A DNA stretch of 63,017 nt, the filler included, from Klebsormidium nitens (taxonomy: Eukaryota; Plantae; Klebsormidiophyceae): NCBI GenBank assembly GCA_000708835.1. It is 8 parts of 8 records of this genome, joined end to end, with 100 filler letters (N's around TTAATTAATTAA, not from the genome) between each part and the next. Parts side by side here need not be neighbours in the genome. Positions count along the whole stretch, not along the records: positions 25,560 to 54,717 come from DF237790.1; 7 more parts are not named here. One strand, written 5' to 3'. Position 1 is the stretch's first letter; every line of letters starts with the position of its first letter. Made by a program: the position numbers and the translations under genes. Positions 25,581-57,819 of the stretch are shown here, one piece after another. The notes below the pieces were generated by a model. It saw only the letters and a program-made list of their open reading frames with translations, had not been told where the DNA came from and did no database searches.

Positions 25581-25757
25581 ACACCACGTAAGAGCGCAAG
25601 AAATCGCATGTAGCAATGGCAGAGAAAAGTGTCCTGGAGAGCGTGCAGAGCGTGAAGGAAGTCTAAAGAGCGTGAAGAGAGTGTGAAGAGAAGAGAGGAG
25701 CGTCAGGGGAGAGCGTGAAGAAGTTTGTTCAAGAGAGAGAACAGCAGGTCTGCCAAG

Positions 25758-26606
25758 ATGGCTGACGAAGGTGTTAGGATCAAGATAGATCTTCTTGATG
25801 TGGAGAACTACTTGCCATGGAGCCAGAAAATGAAGTTTCTGCTGATCTCGAAGGACCTTTGGGAAGGAGTTGAAGATTCTGCGTCACATGCTGCAAAGTC
25901 TAGGAGGGCCTTGGCGATCATTGGACTTCACGTGAAAGATCATCATCTCGGAACCATTGCGGCATGTAAGACTGCAGAAGAAGCTTGGGACCTTCTAGAA
26001 AAGACGTACAAGAGCAAAACAAATGCTCGGAAGTTGCAGTTGAGAAAAGAGATGAGTGCTCTCAAGATGGAGCCTAACGAGCCTGTTGCCACCTATGTTG
26101 CTCGCGCTCAGGATATGTACAGAGACTTGGTGGCTACTGGCTTTCAGATGACCTCAGAGGAGTTGGCCTGGAACGTGCTTGCCGGACTGCCAGTCACCTT
26201 TGATACTCTGGTGACGGTTCTGGAGACTCAAGAGGAAGAGTTACAGGTGGAGAAAATTCTTCCAAAGCTTATGGTGCATGAGCAGAAACAAGTGACGCGG
26301 GAAGACGAGGCTCTTGATAAGGAGCGCAATCCGCTGGCGTTCTCAGCACGAAATGCAGGCTTTGGCAAGGGAAACTTCCAGAAGCAAGGGAAATTTGGAC
26401 AAAAGCAAGAGCAGTCTCGTGGACATCAAGTAACGTGCTTTGAATGCGGACAGGAGGGACACGTAGCAAAGTTTTGTGAGCAAAGGAAAGCGCGTGAAGA
26501 AGCGAGACAATGTTACAGGTGTGGCAAAAAGGGGCATATTGCACGAAATTGTCCAGGTGACTCTAGGGAAGAGGTTGCGAGGGCTATGTCTGTGATGCAC
26601 TTCTGA
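25758..26606 (+). CDS. gag: Copia Gag with two CCHC zinc knuckles
   Basis: LDVENYLPWSQKMKFLLISKDLW, AEEAWDLLEKTY, LKMEPNEPVATYVARA, VLAGLP..FD, CFECGQEGHVAKFC, CYRCGKKGHIARNC. Confidence 0.92.
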   Translation: MADEGVRIKIDLLDVENYLPWSQKMKFLLISKDLWEGVEDSASHAAKSRRALAIIGLHVKDHHLGTIAACKTAEEAWDLLEKTYKSKTNARKLQLRKEMSALKMEPNEPVATYVARAQDMYRDLVATGFQMTSEELAWNVLAGLPVTFDTLVTVLETQEEELQVEKILPKLMVHEQKQVTREDEALDKERNPLAFSARNAGFGKGNFQKQGKFGQKQEQSRGHQVTCFECGQEGHVAKFCEQRKAREEARQCYRCGKKGHIARNCPGDSREEVARAMSVMHF

Positions 26607-35159: not shown

Positions 35160-36390
35160 CCCCCCCACTCGCTGGTTGCGGTCCCCGCGGCCCAAGCGAG
35201 TCACACACGCTGCGGCTCCGCTTCTCAGCACATTGGGCAAAGTGCAGGAATTGGAGGCCATTCTGCAGAAAGGTGCAAAGCAAAACGACATGCCTGCCGA
35301 GGATGGAGCAGAACAGGAGGAGGTTAGTGGGGGGAATGGGACCATGAGGCCAAGAACCGGGGTTGATATGTTCGATCTGCTGGCAGCAATACTGCCGGAG
35401 CCCTTTTTGGTTGCAGAAAAGGAGGACAAAAAACCGAGTTCGCATTATTGTTTGGATCCCAGTGCATGCTCAATATGGTGGGCTCTCATCTTGAGTATGT
35501 TATGCACCAGTGGAGAAGAAGCGCAATGGGGTAAAGAGCGCAAACCTCAAGGCAGCGGCAAGCGGCAAGAGAAAGGCACCGGACACTCAGACTACGCAGG
35601 CTGGCAAAGGTACCGTTATCAGGTTCACCTCGTTCCGCGGTTTCTACGAGCTTTGGTTGTCATGAAGTGTTGGATATGGATCAAGTGCACGCTCTGCCTT
35701 ATGGGCTTTTGCCAAGCTGTGCTTCCATGTTTCAAGCATAATGCATCTAGTTAAATCACTGCTCATTGTTTGAACCATGTTTCGACAAGCTCTAAGCGTA
35801 AGGCGCCGGAAGGCGCTGCCTCTGGCAATACCCAACCAGAGAAGAAGACGCGTCGGTACAAGCCGGGAACCCTAGCTCTTAGGAAGATTCGCAAGTACCA
35901 GAAAAACACGGACCCGCTCATCCCGCGACTCTCGTTTGCTCGTCTCGTGCGCGAGCTATGCGATGCAGAGACTGCCCGGCGGCCTGGTACCGACACAAAC
36001 GGCAAGATTAGGTATGCACTCCCACCTGGCTTGGACTGCCTAAGTGTTGATACGGCATGAGCTGGAGCAAGTGGCTAGATCGATCAACGTCTCCAAGTAT
36101 GGACGTGAAATATTCAAAAGTGAACAAAAATGTTTTGTTTTTGAGAATCGTGCGGTTACGAAGCTGTCCCCTTTTATCATAGTGCTGATCCGAGTTGGCA
36201 AGCTTACGTTCAGGTGGCAGGTGTCGGCGTTGGACGCTCTGTTGGAGGCAAGTTAGGACTTTGTCGTAGGGCTGTTTGGTGACGCGATCTTCTGCCAGTC
36301 GCACGGCAAGCGGAAGACCCTCCAGAAAAAGGACCCGGACCTAGCGCGCAGGATCCGCGGAATTCGGAACGAAGACAACACTCTGCCCTT
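35110..36390 (+). pseudogene. Histone H3-like (CENH3-type fold) copy 1; fold exons ~35790-36011 and 36214-36390+; premature TAG at 36254; 3' end lost in gap
   Basis: [41 protein letters not shown]|WQVSALDALLEAS*DFVVGLFGDAIFCQSHGKRKTLQKKDPDLARRIRG. The 5' exon start (~35110) is approximate. Confidence 0.85.
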
Positions 36391-39868: not shown

Positions 39869-42800
39869 ATGAGAGCAGCTGTCCGGTCTTCAAGCGACGA
39901 CATTCCAAACGAAGAGGTCAATGGGCTAGAGGACCCTGAAATTCTGTTGAAGCAAGCAAATCTAAATCAGCAAGAAGCGGAGAATTTGGAGGCGGCCGCA
40001 TATAGCAAGAGATCGCCCTTGGAAAAGGGACCTCTTGTTATGTCAATCCCCTTGCAGCATGTTGAAGAAGTTACCGAAGTGTTCAAAGGGGAGGAGGAAG
40101 ACCCCTTGCCTTTTGCGCAGCAGATTGCACTCGCAGAGCACGTCTTCAAAAAAGAACACGCGGCTTACGAAGCGGCGCAGGCTAGAAAGGCAGAGAAGCA
40201 CGCAAGAAGGGGAAGGCGGCCGCACTAGCCGCATTCCAGGCAGCGAGCAAAGCTGCTCCCCCTCAAATGAAAAAGGGCTCTAACAGAAAGTCCATTGCCA
40301 AGCTCGGGCCAACGGGAAGGCCGAGGCCTGGTGCTGGGGTGCTCCGCGGACTCCCGGCAGTGCCACCAGGGCGGAGCAGCAAGGGGAAGGGCAGCGCTCC
40401 AGAGCGAAGCGGCATCAAGAAGGCATCTGCACGGGAGACACCCACCAAGAAGACATCAGCAGGTATGAACTCTTGAACGCCTTGCAAATTGCCGGGCCTC
40501 TTTTGTCAGCTCAATGCCTTTGATTTCAGCATTCTAGCTAGCGGGTTGTATCCCAAACAGGTTGCATGAGTGCTTTATGGTAAACGGGCTGTAGAAGTTG
40601 AGCTCAAATGTGAGCGGTCCATGAGCGATCTAGGCATAGGTGCGAGCCAGTTGTCCCTGAACATGATGCTTGGGCGCCTCCCTAATACAGCAACTACCAA
40701 GATGTGATTAATGCTTTGATGCTTTCGCATTTCAGCGAGGAGTTTGTTCACCACTAGGTACATGCTCCCGTTTTAGAGTGGTGGGCGCTCATGTTGACAG
40801 TAATGCAAATGCTTTTTTGCAAAATACGAGCACCTCCTTGTTTGTTCTATGTTGAGTTTGTTCAAAAGCAGGTGCATGCTTGCTAAACTGCAAGATCATA
40901 AGGCTCTTTTTGTCAGCTCATTGCACTTGGTTTGAGCATTTTTGACGAGATGGTTGTTTCCCAAACAGGGTGCAGAAGCAGTTTCTGGTATATGGGTTGT
41001 AAAGATTGAGCTCCATTTGATCACTTCATGAGCGTCCTGGGCCTATTTTGCAAGCGGAGGGTCCCTAAAACACGGTGCTTGCGGCGTTTTTGGTAGACCA
41101 ACTGCCAACTGGTGGTCAAGGCAATGGTTTCATAGCTGCTCATGTTACCTCAAAAACTTACTATCCTCAAAGACCCACTACGTGACTGAGCGCCCTGCGC
41201 GCGCGTACGCGCGACAGACACCAACCGTGCAAACCCTGTGAATCGGAATCAATCATTGGTGGCGACACCCCGACCATACAAGCGGAAACGAGCATCATCT
41301 GATTGGCTAAAGTAAGTGGCGTTACTTCTGCGCGCCGAATCGGGAGGCGACACGTGGCGACCCTTCGGAACACTCTAGAATCAGAAGAAAGTGACCGGAA
41401 GCTTCGTAGTCTTCAATTAGAATCTAAAGATGGTACGCAGTAGATCACGTGGAACTAAGACCCAAATTCTAGAAAGAGCCGAGTAGATACGGGGTCGGTT
41501 GCCAGCATGACTTCTGGTCGCTGACTGCCCGTGATAGGCTAGATGGGAAAGACACGATCAAAAGAGAAGAGACAAGAAGAAATTGAACATTCTTTCCTGG
41601 AAGAGATAGGAAGAATCCGCTTGTGTGCGCCGCCTTGCAGCCACCAAGTGCTTGACCCACTGTTTTCTGTTTTCATTGCGCGCCGACCGACCCGCTTCAA
41701 CTATCTAAATGTTGGTGAATGCTTTTGATGAACTTTTGATTAGGTGGGCTTCCCGTGGGCTTGTTTGATGATATGACCAACCAGCCAGTCTGCATCATTG
41801 TTATGCATTAATGACCTATCTGCATCATGCACCTAGCTAGCATGTTTCCGAGCAAGGCGATTTCTTAAGGTAACACTCCAGCTAGATTGTTTGTTCAAAA
41901 CTACTAGTATTTGGTCCCATTTTAGTACGGTGGGCTCTTGTGTAGAACGTAATACAATTGGTTTATTGCAAAGTATAAGCACTTAGTTTGTTTCGCAGGC
42001 AACAAGCGCAAGGCGCCAGAAGGTCCAGCTCCCGCCTCCAAGCGTGATCCAAAGAAGCCGCATTGGTACATGCCAGGCACCCTAGCGCTCAGGGAGATCC
42101 GGAAGTACCAAAAGAGCACGGAGCCTGTTGTCCTCAGGCTCTCGTTCGGTCGGCTCGTGCGTGAGCTGTGCGACACGAAGAGAAACAAGAGGGGAAAGAG
42201 CTACGGCCTCAGGTTAGCATCTCAGTTGAAATCGAGTAGTTGACGTCTATTGTTCGATCTTACTACGTTGGGCTGTGATGTGGAGCTTCAAGCAGGTCGG
42301 AACGAGCAACTTGGGCAGGAATATGTGGTATCAGGTGTTTGAAATGAGCTGCTCACACATTGCCATTGAGCTGGCAGGTAAACAAAGTCGCAAATGCTTC
42401 CACTCTGATCATGTGGGCGACAATCTTGTTCACGAGGGAAGCGGCAACTCAACTAGCATGATTTGCGCAGCGAAAGTGTGCAGGTCTCTTTGCACTGGTA
42501 GAATAAACCAACTCCCGGAATCATATGTGCTTCTACACCTGTCCTTCCCAGTCGGACGGTCCAATTCCAAAGTGCGTAACAGAATGTGCATTTGGAAATC
42601 GTTCGGGGGAGGGATATCCAAGATTCAAGCATCCTAATCTGCTTTGAAAATCTTGCAGGTGGCACTCGTCCGCTCTAGACGCACTTTTGGAGGCGAGCCA
42701 AGACTTCATCGTGGGCCTCTTCGGAAAGCCATCTTCCGCGTTGCGCACGGCAAGCGCAAGACCCTCCAGGTGAAGGACTTGGACCTAGCGCGCCGGATCC

Positions 42801-43057
42801 GCGGGATCCGCGACGACAACAACAAACTGCCTCTGCAGAGGGAGGTGCAGCACGGGCACTCCTACGACAAGAGGGAGTACTATTCTCAGCTGCGTGCTGG
42901 CGCAGAGAGGTGGAAGCCGCCAAAGCAGATCGAGCGGGAGGAGAGAGAGGCAAGGGAACGGGAGCGCGCTGCCGCTCAAGAGGCAGCGCAAGGCGGGGCT
43001 GAAACGTTCAAGGCGGGTGAAGAGAGAGGGAAGCAAGCGGGGAAGCAAGGGAAATAG
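39869..43057 (+). pseudogene. Histone H3-like (CENH3-type fold) copy 3; exons 39869-40462, 41999-42212, 42659-43057; two -1 shifts in short A runs (~40204, ~42726), possibly sequencing errors
   Basis: [43 protein letters not shown]|WHSSALDALLEASQDFIVGLFG/AIFRVAHGKRKTLQVKDLDLARRIRGIRDDNNKLPLQ..RWKPPKQIEREEREARE. Confidence 0.87.
40498..41145 (+). repeat. Diverged ~240-bp duplication in intron 1 of H3-like copy 3 (~40498-40735 and ~40905-41145)
   Basis: Shared CTCTTTT(T)GTCAGCTCA.TGC, GGTTGT.TCCCAAACAGG.TGCA, TTGAGCTC, CATGAGCG, GTCCCT.AA. Confidence 0.7.
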
Positions 43058-44096
43058 GTGGTGGCATCTCGGGCAAGGGGCAAATATGGCGCGGGGCAAG
43101 GGCAATCCGAGTAGATTAGGTGCACGAATGGGGTCTAGAAAAGGGGCGGGGTCCGCTAAGGCGGAAGATGTGGTGACGGGTGGCCGGGGCCTAGGTGGCG
43201 GGACTCCCGAGAAAGGAACTGGTGGTGCTGGGGGAGTTAGTGGTGCGCCGGCGTCTGCTTTGTTTGTTTCGATTGACTATTAGTTTGTTGATCTGCCGGT
43301 TTCGCAAAAGAACGATCTTGGAGTCCCGATCTTGTCAGACCCGTTTTTGTATTGGGTTGTGCATGGGCAAGCTTTCTTTGTCGGCACATTTGCAGTAGCA
43401 TCATAAAGACCCAAGCAAGACAGGCAACTGCATTAAATACTTGAACAAGATTGATATGATTGACGCATCTAACGGCATCCTTTCGTTTCATTCTGTGCTT
43501 TATTTGTCATGCCGGTTCGAGTCGCAGTGGTTTTATGTCCGATCTAGTTGGTCATGTCGAGAATTGAGTGGTAATGACATGGACCTCAGTGTGCCCAGTG
43601 CACTTGTGACTTGGAGGAAGAATGAAGCCCTATAGCTTCATTCTTTCTTCTGTTCAATTGTAAGACTTGAGGAAGGGCGGCATCAGGTGTCCTTGCGAGT
43701 TGCATCATGGCCAGAAGCTAGTCTCAACGGTGACGCATGTGAGTGGTGACGATAGGAGCTCCCTGTGCACATGGCTCTGTTCTCTGTGACATGCTAGCGA
43801 AGCATGACTTTTTCACAGAAGAAAGAATCCAGAGCCAAGTGAGGTTAGGGAAAGTGTTCAGCTTGGGGGAGCTGTTGGAGCAGCAGCCGTTGCAGGACGC
43901 GACGGCGCTGGAAAGGGTTGGCAGGCAGAAAGTCTGCGACCTGCGGAGGGCGGACCCCGCTGGGGTTGCGCCAGGAGTGACGGTGCTGCGGCACGGGAGA
44001 AGGGGAGCGGAGCGTCTGCGCACCCCAGGGAGACCCGCGAGCTTAGGGAGGCCCGAGGAGGTAACGGTCACGCGATCAGTTGCTGGTTGATGACGA

Positions 44097-45206
44097 ATGG
44101 GGGACGATCTTAGGCAGTTAGTTCAGCGGATCAGGGGTCTCAAGCCAAGTGAAGTGGAGAACGCGCAGGGTTTCATAGACGGTTGGAATCGCTTCAAGCT
44201 GCGGTTTCCACGTGGGTTCCCGGAGGATAAGCTGTGGGTTAACTTTGTTGCAAACCACCCTGAGAGAGCAAAGTTGTTGGGAGTTACGGTCAACCCCAGG
44301 CAGCACTGGCCGTTTGTCCAGCTGCGCTGTCCCTCTCCTTGCCCGCTGTGCCACAGGCCGGAGAGAGACGAGCAGAGGATACGGGAAGCGGTGGAACGTG
44401 CTGAGGCAGAGGAGAGAGAAGAACGTGCTAGGAAGCAGTTGTCGGCGCGGCAGCAGCAGGAAGAGCGGGCGCTCAGGGAAGCTGAAGAGCTGCGGCGCCG
44501 GGACGAGCTGACGGCGGTGCACGGGCGCCGGTTTGAGCAACGGGAGGAGGCGTTGGAGACTAAGAAGGAGTTCCGGAAGAAGGAGGAGAAGCGGCTTGCG
44601 GAGGTGCAGGAGCAGTTTGCGAAGGACGTGGAGAGAAACCCTAGGCTAGCGGAGCTGCTAGAGGCCACGCAGAGGTTCGTCGCAAGGTGGGGGCCGTACG
44701 TGGACGGACACAGCGGGGTACCAGAGGCCAAGCTTTGGCTCGCCTACGTAGCCAACGACCCGAGAGGAGCGAGCGGGTTTGGAGCAAAGGTCAGCTTAGC
44801 GGAGCACCTCCCGCAGGTGGTGAACGGGTGCTTGACCGCCTGTCGCTTGTGTGACCAGGTCCAGTCGCTGGAGACGCGTCAGCAGGTGTGGAACCAGACG
44901 CAGCAGCTGGTGGAGCAGGCGGCGAGGGCGAAGGAGCTGAGGGAAAGGGCGGTTGCAGCAGAGGCGGCCAGGGTGCAGGCGGAGTCGGCCAAGAAGAAGC
45001 GGGAGCGGAAAGCGGAGGCGAAAGCGAGGCGCATAGCGGAACAGGGAACGGGTAGCAAGGAGAAGGAGGGCGAAGAGGCGCGCCCCGCTTGGCTGGAGGA
45101 GGAGCTCCGGGGTTACTGTGAGTGGCACTCGGTGCACGGGTGGCTGCTGGCGCTGCTGGACACACGCCTTGCGGACCAGGGACGCGGTGTGGAGTGCCTG
45201 GACTGA
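44097..45206 (+). CDS. ORF1 / Gag N-terminal region with two copies of an unrecognised H-C-C-C domain separated by coiled coil
   Basis: PEDKLWVNFVANHP..GVTV..HWPFV..CPSPCPLC (aa ~23-85) aligns with PEAKLWLAYVANDP..GAKV..HLPQV..CLTACRLC (aa ~190-252). Confidence 0.65.
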   Translation: MGDDLRQLVQRIRGLKPSEVENAQGFIDGWNRFKLRFPRGFPEDKLWVNFVANHPERAKLLGVTVNPRQHWPFVQLRCPSPCPLCHRPERDEQRIREAVERAEAEEREERARKQLSARQQQEERALREAEELRRRDELTAVHGRRFEQREEALETKKEFRKKEEKRLAEVQEQFAKDVERNPRLAELLEATQRFVARWGPYVDGHSGVPEAKLWLAYVANDPRGASGFGAKVSLAEHLPQVVNGCLTACRLCDQVQSLETRQQVWNQTQQLVEQAARAKELRERAVAAEAARVQAESAKKKRERKAEAKARRIAEQGTGSKEKEGEEARPAWLEEELRGYCEWHSVHGWLLALLDTRLADQGRGVECLD

Positions 45207-45224
45207 GCGGACGGCTGGTGTTTC

Positions 45225-48200
45225 ATGCCGGTGGAAACCAGGGGGCAGTGGGCGGAGAGGTATCAGGCGGTGCTGCGTGCGGAGGCAGAGAGCACAGAGG
45301 AGTCAGGGGTGGGCCAGGAAGGAAGGGTTGAGGCTGGGAAGGAAGTCCAGCCGGTTGTGAGGGGTGAGCAGGCCGTGGGGTGGTGGGAGGATCCATTTGG
45401 GGAGATGGCAACATGCGCGGGGGCTGATGGGAAGCTTAGGTTCTCGGGAAAGAAAGGCGAGGGGTTGACGATTAAGCAGTTCGAGTTAATGGTGAAGGGG
45501 AGCTTGCTGAGCAGGTTTAAAAAGCTCCAGAAAGACGTCGGTGAGCCGATCACGGGCCCTGAGTTCCTGGGCAACTACTGCATCTTCCTTGGGGAGTTCC
45601 TGGACAACCCCGCCAAGCTAGCCCACGAGCGGGAGTACGAGGCGCACTGCCGGGAAACGGACCCGGTGGCAGCCCTCCTAAAGTCCCTCAAGAGGCATTT
45701 CAAGGACCATAAGGAGGGCAGGGCTCACGAATGGGTGGCGTTCAGGAGGGAGCCGGGGGAGGAGCTCCCGTCGCTGCTCTTTAGGCTCCAAGGGCTAGCG
45801 CTGGACCTGGAGAAGCCCCTGGAAGACAAGGAGCTGGTGGGGAAGTTCGTGGCAAGCCTCGATCGCCGGTTCGCGGAACAGACTAACACGCAGGCGATGT
45901 CGTCGACGGTCGAGACAGGAGGGGCCTACACGCTGGATGAAGCGTATGAGGCCGCGCTGATGGTGGCCGCCGGCAATGCGTGCATGAAGATCGCCAGGGA
46001 GCTGGTGCCCAGGAGTAGCGAGGTCCCCCGCGCGTGTTGGGGAGGACGGGCAAGCGGGGCGCACTCGGCACTGCAGCTGGAGGAGCCCGTATACGCAGCG
46101 GCGGTGGCCGCTCCCGTGGCACAGCAGGGGGGCTCGGGGGCGTGCCACAACCGCGGGGAGACCGGGCACTACAGGAACGCGTGCCCCCATCCCCCGCAGA
46201 ACAGCGCTGGGCGGGGAGGCGGACGGGCTGGACGCGGCGGCGGCGGACGCGGCCGGGGACGGGGCCCCTGTTGGGTCTGCGGTGATCACGACCACCAGGC
46301 TGCTCAGTGCGCAAAGCACGCTGCCCCTGCCCCTCAGCCTCAGCATGCTGCGGTGGCGGTGCGTGCCCCCCCGGCATGTGGAGACGGGAGGGGAGTGCTG
46401 GTGTCGGGGGCAAAGTTGAGGGCGTTCCAGGAGTGGAGGGCATCTTCTCAAGCGGCGCTGGCGACGCGGGCCGACGAGGGGGAGGAGGAGGACTTCGAGT
46501 GGGACGAGCAAGAGTACGCACTCGGGGCGGTTGCGCTCCCCGTCAGCGAAGGCACGCCAAACAACATGGCGGCGGCAGGAACTAGGGCGGGGGCGGAAAA
46601 GGCGAAAGCCACCAGGGCAGCGAAGCGCGGACCAAGGGAGGCGGGACGGCAGGAAGCGCAGGTGAACAAGGGCGCTGTTGGGAAAGTGGGGACGGAGCAG
46701 ATCGCGCGGCCAATGGGGGACGGGACAGAGGAGGCGCTCAGGGCAAGACGGGACAAGGGGGCGGCGAAGGAGCGGGCCGCGAAGCTGCCCGATCATGGGC
46801 GGTACGTCGTGCCACAGGGGCTGCACCGGCTGCCGGCGGGGTTCGCGGTCAGGGACGCGCAGGTGCCGCAGGCCGCTGGGACTACGCGCGTCAGAGCCGC
46901 AGGAAATGCGCGCGCCAGCTCGCCCGACGTGGTTCCCAAACCCACTCATCCCAGCTCCTTTGAGACCGTGCAGGCCCCATACCACCTGCCAGGTAAGACA
47001 GCCCCGGCCCCTTTCCAAAACCAAGGCCGTGGGCAATCCCAAACCTTGCAGGGCCTGGTAGCGCCTGGCGCGGGGGTCCTGCCACAGCCGGTGCTGACCG
47101 GGGGGGTCCACCTCGACGTGGGAACGTTCCTAGAGCTGGCCCAGCGCGCGGACATGAGCATGGCGGACGTGGTGGCGCTGACTCGTGGGCAGAAGGCGGG
47201 CGTGGCGCCGCCGCAGGCCCAGGTCACCGCCGGTTCAGGCAACGGGCGCAGCCTGTCACCAGCGGCGCTCAGGGCCCAGGAGGCAAGGGAGCGGAGCGCC
47301 GGCGCGGCGCAGCAGAGCGAGGGGCAGACGCCGGGGGGGGCTGGGGCCAAGGAGATCTCAGGACCCATGGCCCAGTGGGTGGCCATTCTGGAGGACTCAG
47401 TCAGGCGGGCACCAGAGCCGGCGGGGGTGGCGGTGGGAGCGCCCAGCGGGTCCATGGAAGGGGCAGATGACGAGGGATATGCAGACGCGGTGGTGTGGGC
47501 AGACGTCCCGGTTGAAGAGGCTCCTGAGAGCTCGGCGATGGGGGAAGGTCGGGGGCGGGCCAGACAGCGGGGGCAGTCAGACAAGGCAATGGCAGAGGCA
47601 CGGCAAGAGGAGGAACTGAGGGCCCACGCAGAGGAGCGGAGCATCAAGGACAGGGTATCCAGGCAGGACGCTGCGCTGGCAAGGAAGCTGGTGACAGGTG
47701 AAGCGATGGCCAAGGGGATTGACCCCAGCGCAGCGGTCGAGGCCCAGGCAGCGTTGGGGGGAGAGCGTGGGGAAGCGGAAAAGGGGAAGGAGAAAGAGGG
47801 GGACAGGGGCAGTAGGGCAAGCTTGGAGGAGGCGCTGGGTTGGGAGAAGCGGGTAGCTGGCGGGGCGAAGAAAGGCAGCACGCCGCTGGCGCCTGTCACA
47901 TTTCAGCCGCACAGAGCCACGGGGCATAGTAAGGAATTGGAGGCGGATGCCTACGCGCACGCGGCGATAATGGCGTGCTTCGCCGACGGGCGCCCGCTGG
48001 TGGAGGCTGGGAGGCGGTCGCAAGTTGAAGGGGTTCCAGACTGGGTGGACAACAGCAAGGGAGCGGTGCGAGTGGCGGCGCCCCAGGGACTGGTGACACC
48101 GCAGCGGGTGCTCTTGGACGGCGGGAGTTATTACACGATGGTGGGAGCCAGGCTCAAGGAGCAGCTCGGGCTCGGGGATGCGGATATGGACGCGGGGGGC

Positions 48201-48566
48201 CAGAAAGTCCACACAGCGACGGGTAAAGTGGAGTCCCTGCAAGGCGGACTGACAAAAGAACCGGTGCCGATCATCCTCAATGCAAACACGCCGGAGGAGT
48301 TGACAATCTGCGAAAAGGTGGCTTTCACGGGGTCAACAGGGTATGACCTCTTGATCGGCATACGGGCGGCGTACCCGTCTGGTCTCTTGGTGGACAGGTG
48401 GGCAGAGACGGCAGTCTACAGGGCGGACTGGCAAAGGCAGGGCGTGGTGGTGGGGAAGTTGCCGATGAAGCTGCATCAAGAGCTGGGGGCGGCATGGACA
48501 ACGGTAGGCAAACGGGGGAGGAAGGGGGTGGCGGGCGTGGCGCTCGCTTGCTGCCTCACCAAATGA
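45225..48566 (+). CDS. Gag (retrotransposon gag core, two zinc knuckles) plus aspartic protease
   Basis: FRREPGEELPSLLFRL gag-core-like segment, degenerate CHNRGETGHYRNAC, CWVCGDHDHQAAQC, protease VLLDGGSYYTMV and YDLLIG. Confidence 0.8.
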   Translation: MPVETRGQWAERYQAVLRAEAESTEESGVGQEGRVEAGKEVQPVVRGEQAVGWWEDPFGEMATCAGADGKLRFSGKKGEGLTIKQFELMVKGSLLSRFKKLQKDVGEPITGPEFLGNYCIFLGEFLDNPAKLAHEREYEAHCRETDPVAALLKSLKRHFKDHKEGRAHEWVAFRREPGEELPSLLFRLQGLALDLEKPLEDKELVGKFVASLDRRFAEQTNTQAMSSTVETGGAYTLDEAYEAALMVAAGNACMKIARELVPRSSEVPRACWGGRASGAHSALQLEEPVYAAAVAAPVAQQGGSGACHNRGETGHYRNACPHPPQNSAGRGGGRAGRGGGGRGRGRGPCWVCGDHDHQAAQCAKHAAPAPQPQHAAVAVRAPPACGDGRGVLVSGAKLRAFQEWRASSQAALATRADEGEEEDFEWDEQEYALGAVALPVSEGTPNNMAAAGTRAGAEKAKATRAAKRGPREAGRQEAQVNKGAVGKVGTEQIARPMGDGTEEALRARRDKGAAKERAAKLPDHGRYVVPQGLHRLPAGFAVRDAQVPQAAGTTRVRAAGNARASSPDVVPKPTHPSSFETVQAPYHLPGKTAPAPFQNQGRGQSQTLQGLVAPGAGVLPQPVLTGGVHLDVGTFLELAQRADMSMADVVALTRGQKAGVAPPQAQVTAGSGNGRSLSPAALRAQEARERSAGAAQQSEGQTPGGAGAKEISGPMAQWVAILEDSVRRAPEPAGVAVGAPSGSMEGADDEGYADAVVWADVPVEEAPESSAMGEGRGRARQRGQSDKAMAEARQEEELRAHAEERSIKDRVSRQDAALARKLVTGEAMAKGIDPSAAVEAQAALGGERGEAEKGKEKEGDRGSRASLEEALGWEKRVAGGAKKGSTPLAPVTFQPHRATGHSKELEADAYAHAAIMACFADGRPLVEAGRRSQVEGVPDWVDNSKGAVRVAAPQGLVTPQRVLLDGGSYYTMVGARLKEQLGLGDADMDAGGQKVHTATGKVESLQGGLTKEPVPIILNANTPEELTICEKVAFTGSTGYDLLIGIRAAYPSGLLVDRWAETAVYRADWQRQGVVVGKLPMKLHQELGAAWTTVGKRGRKGVAGVALACCLTK

Positions 48567-48869
48567 CAGGACGCGGGGGGGGCTGGGCCAGGGAGCGAGG
48601 AGGACACAGGGGACGGGCCCAGCTCCCCAACTGGTGGGAAGGAGGGTGGGGGGACCCTCAGGCAGGAGCGGATGAGACGGTGGAGGGGGAAAAGATGGCC
48701 GCGGGGGCCGGTGCTGGACGTGGCAGCAGAGGCGGAGAGGGCGGTCTGGCAGGCAGTGGGGGAGAAGCGCAAGAAACCAGGGGATCCAAAACAGGTCCCC
48801 TTGCCGCAGCTGGAGGGGTGCAGGCCAATCAACTGGAACGTCGCCGCCCCACTCCCAGCAGACAGGCCC

Positions 48870-49810
48870 CTCCGAATCTTAGAGCTGTTCGCCGGGGCTG
48901 GCGCTGCTACGCAAGCTGTAGCGCGGCTGGGGTATTCTGTTGGGGAAGTCATCGCGTGCGAAAGGAGGGGAGCAGCACGGCAGGCCCACTCCAGGGCGCT
49001 GCAGCGCCTCGCGAAGGAGTTCCCAAACCAGGTCAGCCAGCGGGCGGGGGCGCAGCTTCACCATCGCCTTCCACAAGACGTGCAGCTGGTGACGGCGGCG
49101 CACCCTGGGGCCCATCGACCTGGTGGTCGCGGGTTGGCCATGCCAGCGCGGCAGGTGGCGGGGGTGGTTTGGACGACGCCAAGTCAGGACTGTTCGTCGA
49201 GCTCCTGCGAGTCCTGGGTATACTGCAAGGGCTGCACAGGAAATGGGGACGAAGCCTCGGGTACGTGGTTGAACACGTGGCAGCGGGGTTCGACCGCAGG
49301 CCAAAGGTGCGGGATCACTACGCAGCTGTGCGGGGGCTGTTAGGCCCAGAGCTAGTGTTTGACGCCGCGCAGGTCGGGTCCCGGGCGCATCGGCTTCGTG
49401 CCTGGTGGACTAACCTGGAGGGGATGGCGCTTCAGCGCGCCGCCCTCAGTGTGCAAAAACGCCCAGAGGGGCTGTTCGTGCAACAGATTCTAGGGGCAGG
49501 AAAGCAGGCAAAGCCGCCCAGAACGCCTGGTGTTGCACCTTGGGCCTGCGTGGAAAGACCTGGGGAGCCGCGGCGGGCCCTCAACATGTTCGTCAGCTAC
49601 GGGGGGTCCTACGCGTTTTCAAGAGGGGGGAGCGGCGTGCTGAGATGTGTTGACCAGACGGGCAGGGTATCCTGGGAAGAGCCGACGGCGGAGGAGCGTG
49701 AGCTGTCTATGGGGTACCCGCGCGGGTTTACAGAGGTGGAAGGACTCAGCGAGCAGACGCGCAGAGAGCTCCTTGGGCAGGCGATGGACTTGAACGCTCT
49801 GATGTGGCTG
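48870..49810 (+). pseudogene. C5 cytosine DNA methyltransferase domain (DNMT3-like motif set), split over three frames
   Basis: Motif I LRILELFAGAG (48870); II ACE; IV IDLVVAGWPCQ (49114-49146, third frame); GLDDAKSGLFVELLR; VI YVVEHV; VIII DAAQVGSRAHRLRAWWTNL; IX EERELSMGYPRGFT; X RRELLGQAMD. Confidence 0.9.
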
Positions 49811-50339
49811 CTCGCAGCCTGCCGAGAAGGTGGGCGCTGTCGAATTAGAGCGGCCAGCTCCCAGCTGGGAGGGGTAGGGATCAGCGGTACGGCAGCCACG
49901 GGCAGCAGGGAGCCGGCGACGGTGGGAGGAGGTATCCCAGCAGGCAACGGCCCAACGCGCAAGGCGGCGGTTGGAGGTAGTATCCCAGTGGGCGCGGCAG
50001 GTGTGCGCGCAGCTGGTGGACTGGACAGCCCCCCGGTGCGGAGTGGGAGCACGGACGGGGGGCCAGCAGGCAGTGTCCCAGCGCGCGAGGCGGCGGCTGG
50101 AGGTGGCGCCCCAGCAGGCGCGGCATGTGAGCGGTCAGCTGGAGGACCAAATAGTCCCTCGGCGCAGGCCAGGAGCACGGGCGGGGGGCCGGCGGGCGGT
50201 AGCCCAGCGCGCAAGGCGGCGACTGGAGGCAGGGCCTCGGCGGGTACGGCAGGTGCGGGCCCAGCTGGAGGGGAGGACGTGAGGGTCGGAGCGGCGACGG
50301 TGGGCGGCGTGAAAGCAGAGGGGGCAGCGGACGGATGGC

Positions 50340-52534
50340 TGGTTGGTGCGCAGCTGGAGGAGGCTGAGAAGCAGCGGGTGGCGGCGGTTGTAGAGAAAAA
50401 CAGGGACGTCTTTGCGTTCTCGCTCGAGGAGATAGGGGAGTTCAAGCTCTTTGAGGTGCAGCTTGATCTAAAGACGGACCAGCCAATCTACGAGCGCCGC
50501 CGGAAGCACAGTCAGCGGGAATGGGAGTTGGTGGACGAGAGGTGCGCGGAGCTGGAGAGGGCGGGCATCATCGAGGAGTGCGACTCCGATTTCGCAGCCA
50601 ACTCTGTCATGGCGGCCAAGAAGGATCCTGAGGGCAACTGGAAGCTGGCCCGTTTCTGCACGGACCTGCGAAGGGTGAATGAGCAGACTGCCCAGGACCG
50701 CTATCCCATGCCCCTGCCGGAGGAGGTGCTGGAGGGGCTGGGACACGCCAAGTTCTACTCCACCATCGACATAAGGGGGGCGTTCCACCAACTGGTGGTG
50801 CGGAAGGAGGACCGCAGAAAGCTGGCGTTCTGGTCTAGCAATAAGCTGTACTGCTGGAAGCGCTGCCCCTTTGGTGCGCGGAACGCCAGCGCCTGGTTCC
50901 AGCGGGCGATCGACCGGGCGCTGAGGGGATGCGAGGCTCTTGCGCGCAGCTTCGTTGATGACCTGCTCGTGGCGGGGGGGGAGACTGCGGAGGAACACAT
51001 GCTGCTGGTTCAGCAGGTGTTCGACCGGCTGCGGGAGGTGGGGCTGAAGTGCCACCCAGAGAAGTGTTGTTTTGCTGCGGAGTCGGTGGAGTACTTGGGG
51101 ATGTGGCTGCGGCCTGGCGTCGTCTCCCCCCATGTGGCGAAGGTGGCGGCGATTGCGGCCCTGCCCAGACCCACGGACGTGACTTCGGTGAAGGCGTTCT
51201 CGGGGGTGGTGAATTACTACAGGCAGTTCATCCCCGACTGCAGCAGGCTCCAGGCGCCTCTGAATGAGCTAACCAAGAAGGGGGCGCTGTGGCGCTGGGG
51301 CCAGGCACAGGAGGATGCCTTCCTCGCGCTGAAGGAGGCGCTGCAGGAGGACCCGGTCCTGGTGCTGCCCAAGAGAGGCAGGCCCTTCAAGGTGCGGTGC
51401 GACTGGAGCAAGCGGGGCGTCGGCGGGGTGCTGCTGCAAGAGGACGAGAGCGGGGCGGAGAGGGTGGTGGCATACGGCAGCAGGAGTTGCAATCAGGCGG
51501 AGTCCCGCTACAGCAGCTTTGAAGGGGAGCTGCTTGCGGCGATGTACTTCGTGCGCCTGTGGCGGCAGTACCTCTGGGGGGAGCGCTTTGTGCTGGAGAG
51601 CGATCACCAGCCCCTGAAGTGGATCCTGACGAACACCAAACTCACGGGGAAGATGGCCAGGTGGGCATTGATGCTAAGTGAGTTTGACTTCGAGGTTGTC
51701 CACAGGCCTGGAGTGGACAACGAGATGGATTGTCTGAGCCGTTACCCGCAGGCGGGGCAAGAGGACTGCGCAGGGGTCAGGCAGGAGGGTGACCTGGAGG
51801 AGAACCCACCCCTTGTGTGGCCGGCGGCGATTTGTCTCGCCTGGCAGCCAGCGCAGACGGAGCCGGGGCGGTCAGAGAGCGGTCCTGTGGAGAGGACAGC
51901 GCCGCTGGCGGACGTGTGGGCGGACGCGGCGTTGCTGGCGCTGCTAAGGGGAGGGGGGTACCCTGCTGGCGCGGACAGGCGGAAGCGCGACAGGCTGCAG
52001 CACAGGGCGCGGGGCTATGAGTGGCGGGGCACCCACTTGGTCAGGCAGGCGGCGGGCAGCGTTTGGGTGGTGCCCAGGGCAGAAGTGCGGGACAGGCTGG
52101 TGCGGGACGTGCACGAGCGGGCGGGCCACGTGGGGGTCAAGAAGACCCATTCCCTGCTCCGGCCGCACTACTGGTGGGTGGGGCTGCTGACGGACGTTTC
52201 CCGGGTGGTGCGCGGGTGCGAGGCCTGCGACAGGGTGAGGGCCACTTTCAACGTGAAACACCCGACGCTGCACCCCCTCCCCATCAAAGGCCTCTTCTAC
52301 CGTTGGGGGCTTGACTTCGCGGGACCGCTCCCCCGGTCAGCCCAGGGCAACCAGTACGTGCTCGTGATGGTTGAGCACTTCAGCAAGACGATCGTCCTGG
52401 TCCCCACTGTGGACAAGGAGCCCAGCACTGTGGCGGCGGTGTTCACTCGGGAGGTGCTCACCAGGTTTGGGGCGTGCGCGGAGGTGGTGACGGACAGGGG
52501 GGGGAGTTTGCAGCGGAGTTCCAGGAGTGCCTAG
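50340..52534 (+). CDS. pol: Gypsy RT - RNase H - integrase N-half (3' part of ORF 48398-52534)
   Basis: RFCTDLRRVN, DIRGAFHQL, CPFGARNA, FVDD (50951), FKVRCDWS..GVGGVL, EGELLA, SDHQPL, ARWALMLSEFDFEVVHRPG, HERAGH..CEAC, GLDFAG, VTDRG. Confidence 0.95.
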
Positions 52535-53382
52535 ACGCGGCGCTCACTGACCACCGCCCCACATCAGCCCACCACCCCCAGGCCAATGGGCTCAGCGAGC
52601 GGATCGTGCAGGTGGTCAAGCGCTCGCTCCGCAAGTGGTGTCTGGGGCACGTAGCGGAGCAGTGGGACCTCTACCTCCCCTGGGTGTCGATGGGGTACAA
52701 CTTCAGCGCCCAGTCCTCGCTCGCAGGGTTTTCCCCTTATCATCAGCTGCACGGCCGGGAGCCGGTGATGCCAGGCGCGCTCAAGGTGGCAGTGACGGAG
52801 CCCCTGGACCTGGATCAGCCGGAGCGGCTGACTGCGCTGGTGGCGCAGCGGGCAGAGCAGTTCCGGCGGTGGATGCCCATGGCGATGGGCAACCTGCAGA
52901 TCGCGCAGCACAGAGACACGCTGCGGTACGCGCACACGCGCAGCGGTGCCTGGAAGCCCAAGGCGGTGCAGCACGCAGTCGGAGACTACGTCTACCTGCA
53001 GCGCGAGATGCTGGACACGCTGGACACGAGGGCGGGGCGGCGGATCCTGCGCGTGAAGGCGGTGGGGAGGGACGGGGTGCTGGAGCTGGAGGGGTCGGAT
53101 GCACGGACTGTGCGCGTGCACACGGAGCGCTGCGCCCCATGTCACCGAACAGACATCGAGGGTCAGATGGACCCGAGGCTGGCGAGGCCTGCAAAGGACT
53201 TCGCGTGCACGCGGTGCCGCAGGGCAGACGGGGAGGCGCGGATGCTGTTGTGCGACGGGTGCGGGGCGGGGTGGCACACGGACTGTCTGGCTCAGCCGCT
53301 GGCGGCGGTGCCCGAGGGTGACTGGTACTGCCCGCGGTGCAGGGCATCCCAGGCGTTGCAGGTGACCGATCCCAGCCATTGA
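52500..53382 (+). CDS. Integrase C-half plus PHD finger (53206-53340); joined to pol by a shift in a G homopolymer
   Basis: One extra G restores DRGGEF. HHPQANGLSER follows. PHD C4HC3: CTRC..LLCDGC..WHTDCL..PL..VPEGDWYCPRC. Confidence 0.9.
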
Positions 53383-53662
53383 GAGTGGGCCCCGCGCAGG
53401 CGAGGGGCCCAGGAGGGGATGATAGCGTTGGGATCGACACGTAGGTGGTCAAGCCATGCCGAGACATTTTTATGTCGAGATGCATAGGCGCGACATTATC
53501 TCGAACAAAACTCCTTCTCCGAGTCGCGCTGCTTGTGCCATATCCAAATGTAGCAATGAGTAATGCCGCGAGCATCAAATACATATTACGATTCTGTTTG
53601 GTAACTTTGTAGATTCTGCGCCTCCCCCCGAGTTCTTCAATGTCAAGATCGACGTCTCCGCG

Positions 53663-54717
53663 ATGCTAGCCGCTAATGCAGCGGCTCTGGACGGCAGCTC
53701 AGCATATTGCCAGCTATACAGCGCATGGCGGCAGGCGTGGCAGGGAGAGCTAACCCCGGATGGCCGAGTGGCCATCGGCGTTATGGTCGACTTTTTGGAA
53801 GGCCCGCGGCGAAAGGCCATCCGCTCAGGTACCTTTCAACGTATGCTCATTGGATGCAAGTGTCTGCAACGTTGGAAGATGGCGTTCTACCGGTCCACGC
53901 ATCAGCCAACACTCAAAGTCTTCAAACTGTTTTGAAAGCATTGGCGTGATGGTTGTATTCTGCAGCACCTCGTTCTCCTGAATTGCAGCGTTCTCAACAT
54001 GACAAGAAGATTGACGTTTCATGCAATCTTGCGCGTACTTTAGCCAAAGCGGGGCATATCAAATTTCGACTCTTTAGCTCGTTTCTTTGAAATGATGCGT
54101 GCGGGTTCACGACTCTGATATCTGCGTTTACTTCCTTGCAGCAGCTGGAGGTGAGGACGACGGGGACAGGTGGAGGCTTCGGCCGAGAAACATCCACGAG
54201 CTGTTCTCGAAGGGGACGGCGAAACGGGGGCAGGGGGTTTTGATGGAGGCGCCAGCGGATTCGAGATGGAGAGCGGGGCGGGAGGGGCGGACTGCGTCCC
54301 TCGAAGACGCAACTCTGTACGTCCTCCACGTCCGGATGGAACAAGAGGAGTGGGTCTCTCCACCCTTGCACGTCATCGACTGGAAGTCGCAGAGAAGCAG
54401 TGGTCCGAGGAGGGGCTCATTGAAACGGCGCAGCAAGAGATGGAGGTAGACACGGTGGTAGCCATGCTCACAAAGCTCTCGGTGTTTGTGTTAGAGGGGT
54501 TAGGGCCGTACTATTCGGCAACGCAGCTGAAATACGCCACCGGCACCAACTCCCACGTTCTAACACTGTACCGCTTCATCCGGTATGCAAAGCGGCTGGG
54601 CGGAAGGGACCAGGAGAAAGTGGAGCTGGAGTTTGATGGGTTCGAGCAGAAGGGAGGTCTTCCGTTGGCGGGAAGGCCGACGGGCGCGCGGCCGAACCCC
54701 AACCCGATTGGGTACGA
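53663..54717 (+). other. Possible exons of an unidentified gene (53663-~53829, ~54141-54717), truncated at spacer
   Basis: GC-rich, protein-like frames bounded by plausible GT (53829) and AG (54140) sites. No family recognised. Confidence 0.25.
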
Positions 54718-54817: not shown

Positions 54818-57800
54818 GTGAAAGTGCGACACCTCGCGGCAGAAGTGCGACACTTCGTTGCACTCGTTGCCGAGTCCTGGAAAGTGCGACACCTCGTCAC
54901 AGATTTTTGCTGGCCCTTCTTCAAGGGCCCAAAAGTGCAACACCTAGTTGCACTTTTCGCAGAGTCCCTGAAAGTGCGACACCTCGTCGCTGAAGTGCGA
55001 CACTTAATTGCACTCGTTGCCGAGTCCCGGAAAGTGCAACACCTCGTCGCAGATTTAAGTTGCTGACCCTTTTTCAAGGGCCCAATAGTTCAACATCTAG
55101 CTGCACTCGTTGCCGGGTCCTAGAAAGTGCGACACCTTGTTCCACTTTTTGCAGCGGCCCTGAAGGTGCGACACCTCGTTGCATTTTTTGCAGAGTCCTT
55201 AAAAGTGCGACACCTGGTTGCAGTTCTAAGTGCAACATCCAGTTGCACTTTTTCCAGAGTCCCTAAAAGTGTGATATCTCGTTGCAGAAGTGCGACACCT
55301 AGTTGCACTTTTTGCAGAGTCCCTGAAAGTGCGACACCTCGTCGCAGATGTTTGCTAAAAATCTGCAAACATTTTCTCAACATTTTCTCGACACTTGTGC
55401 AACGAGGTGTCGCACTTCAAAGACCCGGCAACGAGTGCAACTAGGAGTCGCACTTTTGGGCCCTTGAAGAAGGGCCAGCAAACATCTTTCGGCGCGGTGT
55501 CGCACTTTCAGTGACTCTGCAATAAATGCAACTAGATGTCGCACTTTTGGGCCCTTGAGGAGAGGCCAGCACAAATCTGCGACGAAGGTGTCGCACTTTC
55601 CAGGACTCGGCAACGAGTGCAACTGGGTGTCGCACTTCTGCAACAAGGTGTCGCACTTTCAAGGACTCTGCAAAAAGTGCAACGAGGTGTCGCACTTCTG
55701 CAACGAGGTGTTGCACTTTTAAGGACCCTGCAAAAAGTGCAACTAGGTGTCGCACTTTTGGGCCCTTGAAGAAGGGCCACCAAATATCTGCAACGAGGTG
55801 TCACACTTTCAGGGACTTTGCAAAAAGTGCAACTTTTGTAAGTGTTGCGCTTCGCGGCAACGAGGTGTTGCACTTTCAGGTCCAACACTGCTACAAGTGC
55901 AACAAGGTGTCGCACTTTTGGGCCCTTGAAGAAAGGCCAGCAGACATTTGCGATGAAGTGTTGCACTTTCGGAGACTCTGCAAAACGTGCAACGAGGTGT
56001 CACACTTTCAGGGACCTGGCAAAAAGTGCAACCAGGTGTCGCACTTTTGGGCCGTTGAAAACAGGCCAGCAAACATCTGCAACGAGGTGTTGCACTTTCA
56101 GGGACTCCGCAAAAAGTGCAACGAAATGTTGCACTTTCAGGGAATCTGCAAAAAGGGACAGCAAATATCTGCGAAAAGATGTTGCACTTTTAGGGACGCT
56201 GCAAAACGCGCGACGAGGTGTCGCAGTTTCTACCTGACCCGGCAACGAGTGCAGCTAGGTGTCGCACTTCTGGGTCCTTGAAGAAGGGCTAGCAAATATC
56301 TGCGACGAGGTGTCAAAAAGTGCACTGATTAGAGGTTTTTGGTGTCTAAACCCGACGGGAACTTAGTAGCCTAGGCTAGGTAGGCTTGCCAAACCCCCCG
56401 CAAATTTCAAATCGATACTGCCACTGAGCTAGGATCCTAGCTGAAACTCGCCGCAGCCCGTACGATCGAAATTTGACTCTCGCGATCGACCGAAACCGTC
56501 CGTACTGTGAGTCAAATTTTAAATTTAATCACGCGCGACGGTTGCGAGGGCTGAACCACTGGTCACTAGTCTAGTAGCCTAGGCTCACTAGGCTAGTGGG
56601 TCAGGGGTCGTATTCCGGCCGGGTTTTGACTCCAAAACTCCTCTAATCAGTGTGACCAGGTGTCGCACTTCTGCGGAACGAGGTGTTGCACTTTCAAGAA
56701 CTCTGCAAAAAGTGCAACTAAACGGTCGCACTTTTGGGCCCTCCAAGAAGGGCAAGGAACTTAAATCTGCGACGAGGTGTCGCACTTTCTAGGATTCGGC
56801 AACGAGTGCAACTAGGTGCAGTGTCGCACTTCTGCAACGAGGTGTCGCACTTTCAGGTCCAACTCTGCAACAAGTGCACCAAGGTGTCGCACTTTTGGGC
56901 CCTTGAAGAAGGGCCAGCAAACATCTGTGAGGAGGTGTCGCACTTTCAAGGACTCTGCAAAACGTGCAACGAGGGGTCGCACTTTTAGGGACCCGGCAAC
57001 GAGTGCAGCTAGGTGGCGCACTTTTGGGCCGTTGAAGACAGGCGCCAGCAAACATCTGCGACGGGGTGTCGCACTTTTAGGGACTCCGCAAAAGTGCAAC
57101 GAGGTGTCGCACAAGTTCCAAAACCCGGCAACGGGTGCAACTAGGTATCGCACTTCTGCAACGAGGTGGACCGCACTTTTAGGGACTCTGCAAAAAGTGC
57201 AACGAGGTGTCGCACTCTCAGGGACTCTGCAAAACATGGAACAAGGTGTCGCATTTTCTAGAACCCGGCAACGATTGCAGCTAGATGTTGCACTTTTGGG
57301 GCCTTGAAAAAGGGCCAGCAACTTAAATCTGCGACAGGTGTTGTACATTCCACGACCCGGCAACGAGTGCAACTAGGTGTCGCACTTCTGCAACGAGGTG
57401 TCGCACTTTCAGGGACTGTGCGAAAAGTGCAACAGGTTGTCGCACCGCAAAAAGTGCAACTGGTCTGCATCGGAGGTGTTGCACTTTCAAGGACTCTGCG
57501 AAAAGTGCAATTCGATGTTGCACTTTCAGGGACTCTACAAAAAGTACAACAAGGTATCGCACTTTTGGGCCCTTGAAGAAGGCCCAGCAAATATCTACAA
57601 CAAGGTGTCGCACTTTCAAGGACTCTGCAAAACGTGCAACGAGGTCTCGCACTTTCAGGGACTCGGCAACGAGTGCAACTAGGAGTCGCACTTTTGGGCC
57701 CTTGAAGAAGGGCCAGCAAACATCTTCCGCGAGGTGTCGCACTTTCAGGGACTCGGCAAAGAGTGCAACTAGGTGTCGCACTTTTAGGCCCTTGAAGAGG

Positions 57801-57819
57801 GGCCATCACAAATCTGCAA
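54818..57819. repeat. Complex satellite built on the dyad AAAGTGC(A/G)AC-N5-GT(C/T)GCACTTT, orientation flip near 55390
   Basis: Dozens of copies with a few recurring spacer types (CAAGGACTCTGC; TGGGCCCTTGAAGAAGGGCCAGCAAACATCTGC). It reads GCGACACCTCGTTGC before ~55385 and GCAACGAGGTGTCGC after. Confidence 0.95.
56323..56652. mobile_element. 330-bp CACTG-ended MITE (CACTA/CMC-like) inserted in the satellite
   Basis: TIR CACTGATTAGAGG (13 bp perfect, ~40 bp imperfect). It interrupts a satellite unit; flanked by TG on both sides. Confidence 0.75.

Follow-up and report, generated by a model that had tools for sequence, protein, structure and literature searches.

A Gypsy retrotransposon that encodes its own cytosine methyltransferase raises the question of what such an enzyme does for a mobile element. 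In one copy from the charophyte alga Klebsormidium nitens, the C5 cytosine methyltransferase (DNMT) domain is interrupted by two frameshifts, which raises the further question of whether the enzyme alone has decayed or the copy as a whole is dead. We analysed this copy in a stretch of 63,017 nucleotides (the window, meaning the whole of that stretch), for which an earlier note, made from the sequence alone, had described the domain and proposed that it was probably inactivated while the reverse transcriptase, RNase H and integrase part was nearly intact.

The methyltransferase domain and the polyprotein

The DNMT lies between the protease and the reverse transcriptase (RT) of a 9,991-bp Gypsy element (43505-53495), whose features are collected in Table 1. 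The domains are ordered protease-DNMT-RT-RNase H (RH)-integrase (IN)-PHD finger, within which the canonical Ty3/Gypsy order PR-RT-RH-IN, with a DDE integrase, is present. The C-terminal PHD finger and the permuted repeats at the element ends were both absent from the earlier reading. A DIRS or Ngaro identity was rejected, since Pfam gives rve and Integrase_H2C2 and no tyrosine recombinase. Elsewhere in the window, 20732-22063 (minus strand) presumably represents another Gypsy integrase fragment, and 25719-26603 (plus strand) is what we take to be a Copia-type gag fragment.

Table 1 Features of the Gypsy element, with positions along the window
Feature	Position	Strand	Observation or basis
Left target-site duplication	43500-43504	+	TTAT and one further T, or else 5 bp duplicated with a C>T change; empty-site joints in X1-X3
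LTR part A (putative promoter, R and U5)	43505-43815	+	Starts TGTCATG, ends CATGACTTTTTCA; both ends like part A of L006/L029
Predicted self-primer near putative transcript start	43640-43652	+	3' arm of hairpin 43615-43648; paired in the predicted fold
Putative primer binding site, self-priming type	43816-43828	+	Directly after A
5' part of the polyprotein frame	44094-45206	+	370 codons, no Pfam match above cut-off; ends in TGA at 45204
Gag-like region and protease	45207-48566	+	Ends in in-frame TGA at 48564
Weak zinc knuckle in Gag-like region	46266-46316	+	zf-CCHC match under the cut-off (E 0.12)
Aspartic protease	about 48093-48437, catalytic Asp 48117	+	37% identical to P0237 over its Pfam Asp_protease_2 region
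DNMT3-type C5 cytosine methyltransferase domain	48861-49813	+	Normal motif order from I to X; motif VI reads EHV; two 8-bp deletions, near 49103 and 49146
Gly/Ala-rich linker	49937-50278	+	Three repeats at 126 bp spacing
Reverse transcriptase (FVDD), open	50618-51106	+	RVT_1 E 3.6e-24
RNase H, open	51296-51685	+	RT_RNaseH E 1.3e-32
DDE integrase and zinc-binding domain, frameshifted	52082-53175	+	Pfam rve and Integrase_H2C2
C-terminal PHD finger	53206-53340	+	PF00628 E 3e-10; stop codon 53380-53382
Polypurine tract, putative plus-strand primer	53411-53419	+	Same place before B in L029, L011, L025, L035
LTR part B (putative U3 start)	53420-53495	+	Starts TG after the polypurine tract; ends GCGCGACA like relatives' B ends
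Right target-site duplication	53496-53499	+	TTAT; empty-site joints, junction letters

A three-frame reading of the DNMT region (48840-49860) places motif I FAGAG (48888-48902) and motif II (E at 48960) in frame 3, which holds all of motifs I-III, and motif IV PCQ (49138-49146, LGPIDLVVAGWPCQ) in frame 1. Motif VI EHV (49271-49279), motif VIII RLR (49391-49399), motif IX (from 49694), and motif X (49760-49801) follow in frame 2. Every motif of the series that had been read inside the polyprotein was thus found at its place, and the catalytic Cys (IV), Glu (VI), and RxR (VIII), as well as the SAM motifs I, II, and X, are all encoded. Frame 2 stays open through RT, RH, and the first half of the integrase, so the C-terminal two thirds of the DNMT share a frame with RT-RH-IN in an intronless ORF. 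In the relatives P0003 and P0006 the whole DNMT is in one frame with RT-RH, and in P0004 and P0001 the protease and the DNMT belong to one protein. The liverwort-type proteins P0227 and P0232-P0243 end about 85-135 residues past the DNMT, and Gag-PR-DNMT and RT may therefore be separate frames there.

With an X placed at each of the two breaks, the repaired domain reaches 452 bits against a profile built from 8 relatives, 7 of which match PF00145; the split, unrepaired pieces gave no PF00145 match in a Pfam search. When compared with solved structures, the profile ranks DNMT3A first (E 2.6e-24), followed by DNMT3B, DRM2 (1e-10, over the first 127 profile positions only), and M.HhaI (7e-6). In agreement with this ranking, the predicted model of the intact relative P0005 (pLDDT 92.5) matches DNMT3B and DNMT3A with a TM of about 0.70, consistent with the DNMT3-like character that had been suspected. 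The catalytic domains of animal DNMT3A and DNMT3B, the best match in both sequence and fold, have motif order and catalytic residues in common with the window's DNMT, which differs from them in its low identity (about 24%), in EHV for ENV, in the absence of PWWP and ADD domains, and in its fusion to a polyprotein. A plant DRM identity was rejected, since DRM enzymes have a circularly permuted motif order whereas the motifs in the window run from I to X.

Family, host range, and trees

The nearest named protein is KFL_009030040 of K. nitens, with 76% identity over the DNMT piece and 84% over RT-RH, and for this reason the copy very likely belongs, as judged from sequence, to the KnitGypsy-Dnmt3 family described in 2018 (de Mendoza et al., PMC5890265). 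This agrees with the earlier remark that DNMT-bearing retrotransposons are known from charophytes. Both KnitGypsy-Dnmt3 and the window's element have an unrearranged, intronless Dnmt3-type domain inside a Gypsy Pol ORF, and the parts A and B of the window's copy would fit the DIRS-like repeats given in the legend of Fig. 4c of PMC5890265. The copy differs in its five breaks and its single-B form. In the literature searched, the name KnitGypsy occurs in PMC5890265 only.

Other named relatives come from Marchantia polymorpha, Calypogeia fissa, Closterium spp., Hariotina reticulata, and, as a fragment, Tetrabaena socialis, with intact-looking members in Marchantia, Closterium, and chlorophytes. 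They show two layouts, the DNMT standing before RT in the window, Closterium, and liverworts, and between RH and integrase in Hariotina and many further loci; the DNMT tree splits the two layouts at 97/99. In an RT tree (FastTree) of 162 rows, left from 199 once 37 with more than 90% likeness had been removed, the 90 rows that bear a DNMT group without exception in one 99-row clade with support of 100, apart from 63 other Gypsy RTs, this outgroup consisting of the returns of one word-based search and holding no reference lineages. The 9 rows of the clade that carry no DNMT are mostly partial proteins, two being possibly true losses. The simplest reading of the RT and DNMT trees would be one capture of the DNMT and one move within Pol. 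No DNMT was detected in P0297 and P0296, which have enough sequence to contain one, and P0298 from Tetrabaena keeps a diverged fragment only, so the domain appears dispensable in some lineages.

A metagenome scan with the window's own piece gave 63 pattern matches and no relative, and among the best 80 of 222 loci of a second scan none was above 43% identity. The 53 loci found in a viral scan all matched weakly and in part (best E 4e-13), with no full-length one among them. The capture was placed in the K. nitens lineage in PMC5890265, and later papers cite that work for streptophytes in general (PMC12344493; bioRxiv 10.64898/2026.05.21.726589). The accessible text of PMC5890265 makes no mention of EHV, the PHD finger, self-priming, the internal palindrome, or the repeat mechanism, and the relatives found here reach liverworts, Closterium, and chlorophytes. 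Among the papers listed by our search of openly accessible literature, none appeared to treat EHV, the chlorophyte and liverwort members, or the repeat mechanism, some of which the supplementary figures of the 2018 and 2025 papers may show.

Element ends and permuted repeats

Empty-site contigs set the limits of the element at 43505 and 53495, inside a repeat of higher depth. The element starts with TG and ends with CA, and its TTAT duplication is imperfect by one base, an extra T on the left. No repeat shared by the two ends of the copy exceeds chance, with 188 of 300 shuffles reaching an equal score, and no direct LTR pair is present. Inverted-repeat (TIR) ends were rejected, 294 of 300 shuffles scoring as well, and a collapsed LTR as the source of the higher depth over 43464-44500 was rejected because one contig carries a unique left junction. 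No single contig of runs X1-X3 spans the whole element.

The repeat hosting the element is present at about 7 to 10 times depth and may itself be a further mobile element, one that carries an H3-like gene. Immediately upstream of the insertion stands a split coding sequence resembling histone H3 (41953-42830; Pfam Histone E 9.6e-11 over 41953-42240), and a second, 76%-alike copy of its 3' part is found at 36269-36387. The segment 45000-45764 has a partial second copy with other flanks in X1-X3 (loose ends), and 54819-57809 is a satellite-like array with units spaced 39, 60, and 90 bp and a strand switch near 55400.

The predicted self-primer is a 13-nt perfect complement of 43816-43828, a match which none of 2000 shuffles reached, and locus L029 shows the same self-priming arrangement with 16 nt (0 of 2000 shuffles). 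The overall stability of the 200-nt 5' RNA is ordinary (z -1.08), only the primer stem being specific. No tRNA gene is present in the window, and the 4 chlorophyte-type loci tested gave no self-priming signal. Since a self-priming site follows A and a polypurine tract (PPT) precedes B, the true LTR would be B-GC-A, with TG...CA ends, whereas the inserted copies begin at A and end at B, which would place their termini inside the LTR.

The window's copy has the form A-coding-B, with no second A-B, whereas L029 shows the order A1-coding-PPT-B1-GC-A2-AT-B2, flanked beyond A1 and B2 by an AAGG duplication. The full A-B-A-B form is seen in this one locus, L006 being cut by a contig end. Loci L009, L033, and L065 are A-coding-B with perfect 4-bp duplications, and such duplications lie outside A1 and the last B in all four distinct two-ended loci (L009, L029, L033, and L065). 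Of the eight distinct loci in which a B end is visible, six terminate at that point; L030, L034, and L047 are the same loci as L029, L033, and L046. The B|A join is the palindrome GACAGCTGTC (GACA-GC-TGTC). Among 71 element loci, which include both layouts, it is present 9 times against 0.5 expected, in every case downstream of IN/PHD; 62 other loci contain it once, against 0.87 expected. Beyond the palindrome, no second B was found in 7 chlorophyte-type loci, 3 of which have under 400 bases left. In L025 (3737-9601) and L044 (7083-13919) a 1,500-codon ORF comes after the palindrome, in the order integrase-B-A-gag, which would fit a one-LTR circle, a tandem, or an assembly collapse alike.

Because the copy begins and ends in the middle of the terminal repeat, the family may insert from a circle, and we infer that integration takes place at the LTR-internal palindrome, probably from such a circle. 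Counting against the circle route, no circle was observed, one locus, L029, shows the full form, and the chlorophyte-type loci gave neither a second B nor a self-priming signal. The A-coding-B form could also arise with no circle at all, either by recombination between the B repeats of an A-coding-B-GC-A-B insertion or by an integrase cutting both palindromes of linear cDNA. Either route would produce precisely A-coding-B and leave the duplications intact, recombination between repeats is known from old copies, and the frequency of the B-ended form points the same way. Nevertheless, B is short (76 bp in the window, about 113 bp in L029) and a poor recombination substrate, the A2-AT-B2 of L029, which reads as joined cDNA ends, is left unexplained by either route, and both routes still need an internal attachment site. 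We regard an origin without a circle as possible, if rather unlikely.

Motif VI and conservation of the domain

The EHV of motif VI had been noted as a departure from ENV, to be checked for fixation in the family. In the profile alignment of 235 rows, 28 were dropped as over 90% alike, leaving 207 non-redundant domains. EN occurs in 187 of these, none of which is more than 43% identical to the window, whereas all 12 relatives with at least 65% identity that cover motif VI have EH (a thirteenth is without the region). EH also occurs in two Closterium clusters, apart from the Klebsormidium-type clade. The tree used to follow changes in motif VI, which leaves out L056, L070, L002, L003, L008, L016, L064, and L012 as well as four outgroup rows, needs three changes and gives the 12-row EH clade 99% support; in the trees a long branch leads to the EHV clade. 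The RxR of motif VIII is present in 202 of the 207 domains, and xCQ or something close to it in most, while the Cys, the Glu, and both Arg are conserved across the EHV clade. Judged by this alignment, EHV is a fixed trait of the Klebsormidium-type clade and not decay. Among the same 207 domains, motif IV reads ECQ in 101 and PCQ in 80, and motif VI reads ENT in 76 and ENA in 23; in L070 it is EHH. P0005 and P0006 are of the EHV type, whereas Mp4g09160 of Marchantia and L005 are of the ENV type.

In Dnmt3a, the Asn matching motif VI bonds to the Pro carbonyl of motif IV, and the N167A variant keeps 10-17% of the activity, the role of the residue being positional only (PMC4802922). The His that replaces Asn in motif VI would keep the positioning hydrogen bond, so that the live enzyme would still work. 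Between the window and the X7 copy, synonymous differences make up 9 of 10 in the DNMT and 11 of 22 in the linker (32 used of 66, from a partial list).

It is conceivable that the domain of the EHV clade binds DNA or SAM without methylating and persists as a non-catalytic part of the particle or the integration complex. One KnitGypsy-Dnmt3 domain gave no methylation in yeast, a result which its authors call inconclusive (PMC5890265). The CpG observed/expected ratio of the element is 0.81, against 0.87 and 0.97 in the flanks, a slight depletion which, like the long branch to the EHV clade, would suit a domain that does not methylate. Nevertheless, human DNMT3B failed in the same yeast assay (PMC5890265), the motif VI Asn is not catalytic (PMC4802922), EH arose more than once, and the catalytic residues and the SAM motifs are all retained in the clade. 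We therefore consider a non-catalytic role unlikely and favour an active enzyme in the live element. Two retrotransposon Dnmt3s of dinoflagellates methylate CG de novo in yeast (PMC5890265).

A separate observation concerns X5, whose differences from the window over 43000-54000 consist nearly entirely of C>T (113) and G>A, the pattern expected of a bisulfite-converted library. Some of its element contigs differ at 0-2 positions in 200 bases, a sign of either dense methylation or unconverted DNA.

Breaks and state of the copy

The ORF is broken in five places, namely by the two DNMT deletions, by the two in-frame TGA stops (Table 1), and by a frameshift in the integrase core, in a run of G (52497-52504) that follows the second Asp and precedes the Glu. 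The whole DNMT domain is spanned by one contig each in X1, X2, and X3 with 0 differences and 0 gaps, these runs being from one sample that is possibly the source of the window's sequence. A contig of X5, from another sample and study, crosses both deletion sites ungapped, with 27 letters to the left of the first, and a 92%-alike X7 contig has 8 extra bases at each DNMT break, where relatives have three residues in the protein alignment against one base in the window. The stop at 48564 and the integrase frameshift are spanned by contigs without any difference, the G run being covered by X1 and X2 contigs with 0 gaps. The X6 and X8 matches are one small contig each.

The frameshifts had been described as bracketing motif IV and as something other than simple homopolymer slips. 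The second part stands, since they are real 8-bp deletions, while the first needs correction, as the second deletion lies directly after Cys-Gln, within the catalytic loop and beside a 3-base repeat, not outside motif IV. No single open frame runs through the DNMT, and the view that the enzyme is inactivated in this copy is borne out. The deletions sum to 16 bases and put RT-RH-IN out of frame with Gag-protease; together with the broken integrase and the two stops, this contradicts the description of RT-RH-IN as nearly intact. Since the two stops and the integrase frameshift break the ORF besides the DNMT deletions, the whole copy is dead, not the DNMT alone.

This bears on the suggestion that the DNMT is a passenger being shed, which would decay faster than pol and make the copy a step toward a DNMT-free element. 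Two of the five breaks do fall within the DNMT, 10% of the ORF, and some chlorophyte members are without the domain. In 17 bryophyte-clade loci, which were chosen by their DNMT motifs and are mutually non-independent, the DNMT has 1.04 stops per 100 residues against 0.58 in RT. However, the same loci have 1.41 in RH and 0.83 in IN, which puts the DNMT within the range of its neighbours, and the clustering of breaks is compatible with chance (P 0.085), all the more as the two deletions are 41 bp apart and may be one event. The deletions also disrupt the frame of RT-RH-IN, and 475 clusters (E<=1e-30), some of which may be host DNMT3s, retain the domain. Loss of the DNMT with retention of a nearly intact pol is thus not supported by the copy, and we find the shedding of a passenger very improbable. 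An assembly chimera, or frameshifts that are sequencing errors, can hardly be right: X1-X3 are one sample, maybe the window's source, and the whole element is in no single contig, but the three runs and the X5 sample agree across the domain, and many independent proteins have the same domain order.

Discussion

We consider it probable that the window holds a dead A-coding-B copy of a Gypsy family, very likely KnitGypsy-Dnmt3, whose live DNMT3-type enzyme likely methylates the element's own new DNA and whose integration likely cuts the LTR-internal palindrome. The live element would be one ORF of about 3,100 codons, so that the DNMT would enter the particle together with RT and be the first to encounter the cDNA. 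Methylation of the element's own cDNA was also proposed by the 2018 authors (PMC5890265). Reverse transcription, self-primed after A and PPT-primed before B, would give an ordinary cDNA with the LTR B-GC-A, whose ends may then be joined, as suggested by CA-AT-TG at A2|B2 of L029. The integrase would open the GACA-GC-TGTC palindrome and drop the GC, so that a two-LTR circle would give A-coding-B-GC-A-B and a one-LTR circle the form A-coding-B seen in the window. The latter, lacking terminal redundancy, would be a dead end. The PHD finger may steer integration by reading chromatin.

Parts of this scheme have counterparts in known systems. The integrases of foamy virus and HIV-1 can cut the palindromic junction of a circle, where two attachment ends abut (PMC1180852, PMC1905944); their palindrome is the join of the cDNA ends, whereas that of the window's family would lie inside the LTR, the join of the cDNA ends staying within the insert. 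SymbioDIRS-Dnmt3 of Symbiodinium also has a Dnmt3 in the Pol ORF, two domain orders, and A-coding-B-A-B repeats, and its Dnmt3 methylates CG de novo in yeast, but it is a tyrosine-recombinase DIRS element (PMC5890265). The window's element, in contrast, encodes a DDE integrase and belongs with target duplications of 4 bp. Tf1/Sushi and plant Tcn1 elements likewise have a primer binding site complementary to their own 5' end rather than to a tRNA, but have two ordinary LTRs and a chromodomain, with no DNMT or PHD finger reported in the accessible text (PMC6317226). The EpiLTRs of Cymbomonas and Euglena are Gypsy elements with a cytosine methyltransferase and a chromatin reader; their DNMT differs in being sister to DNMT4 and in standing beside an adenine methyltransferase and a chromodomain, and is stated to represent a capture separate from Gypsy-DNMT3 (bioRxiv 10.64898/2026.05.21.726589).

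For the group as a whole, we hypothesize, at about even chances, an old Gypsy clade of chlorophytes, charophytes, and bryophytes in which DNMT3 was captured once and moved once in Pol, methylates the element's own cDNA, and is accompanied by DDE integration from a circle opened at a conserved LTR-internal palindrome.

The family has been in print since 2018, its methyltransferase capture included, and the copy analysed here is a fossil of it; the added weight lies in the wider range of the clade and in the proposed integration route. The intact-looking members of Marchantia, Closterium, and chlorophytes offer natural enzymes for studying the function of retrotransposon DNMT3s, and the EHV variant could be the reason why the yeast assay failed. 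LTR circles are usually regarded as dead ends. A DDE-integrase clade inserting from within its LTR would, if true, be a natural case of circles as intermediates. Such elements would be invisible to LTR finders, and a plant reference survey that required two LTRs would miss them (PMC6317226). Intact Marchantia copies would make both claims testable in a model plant.
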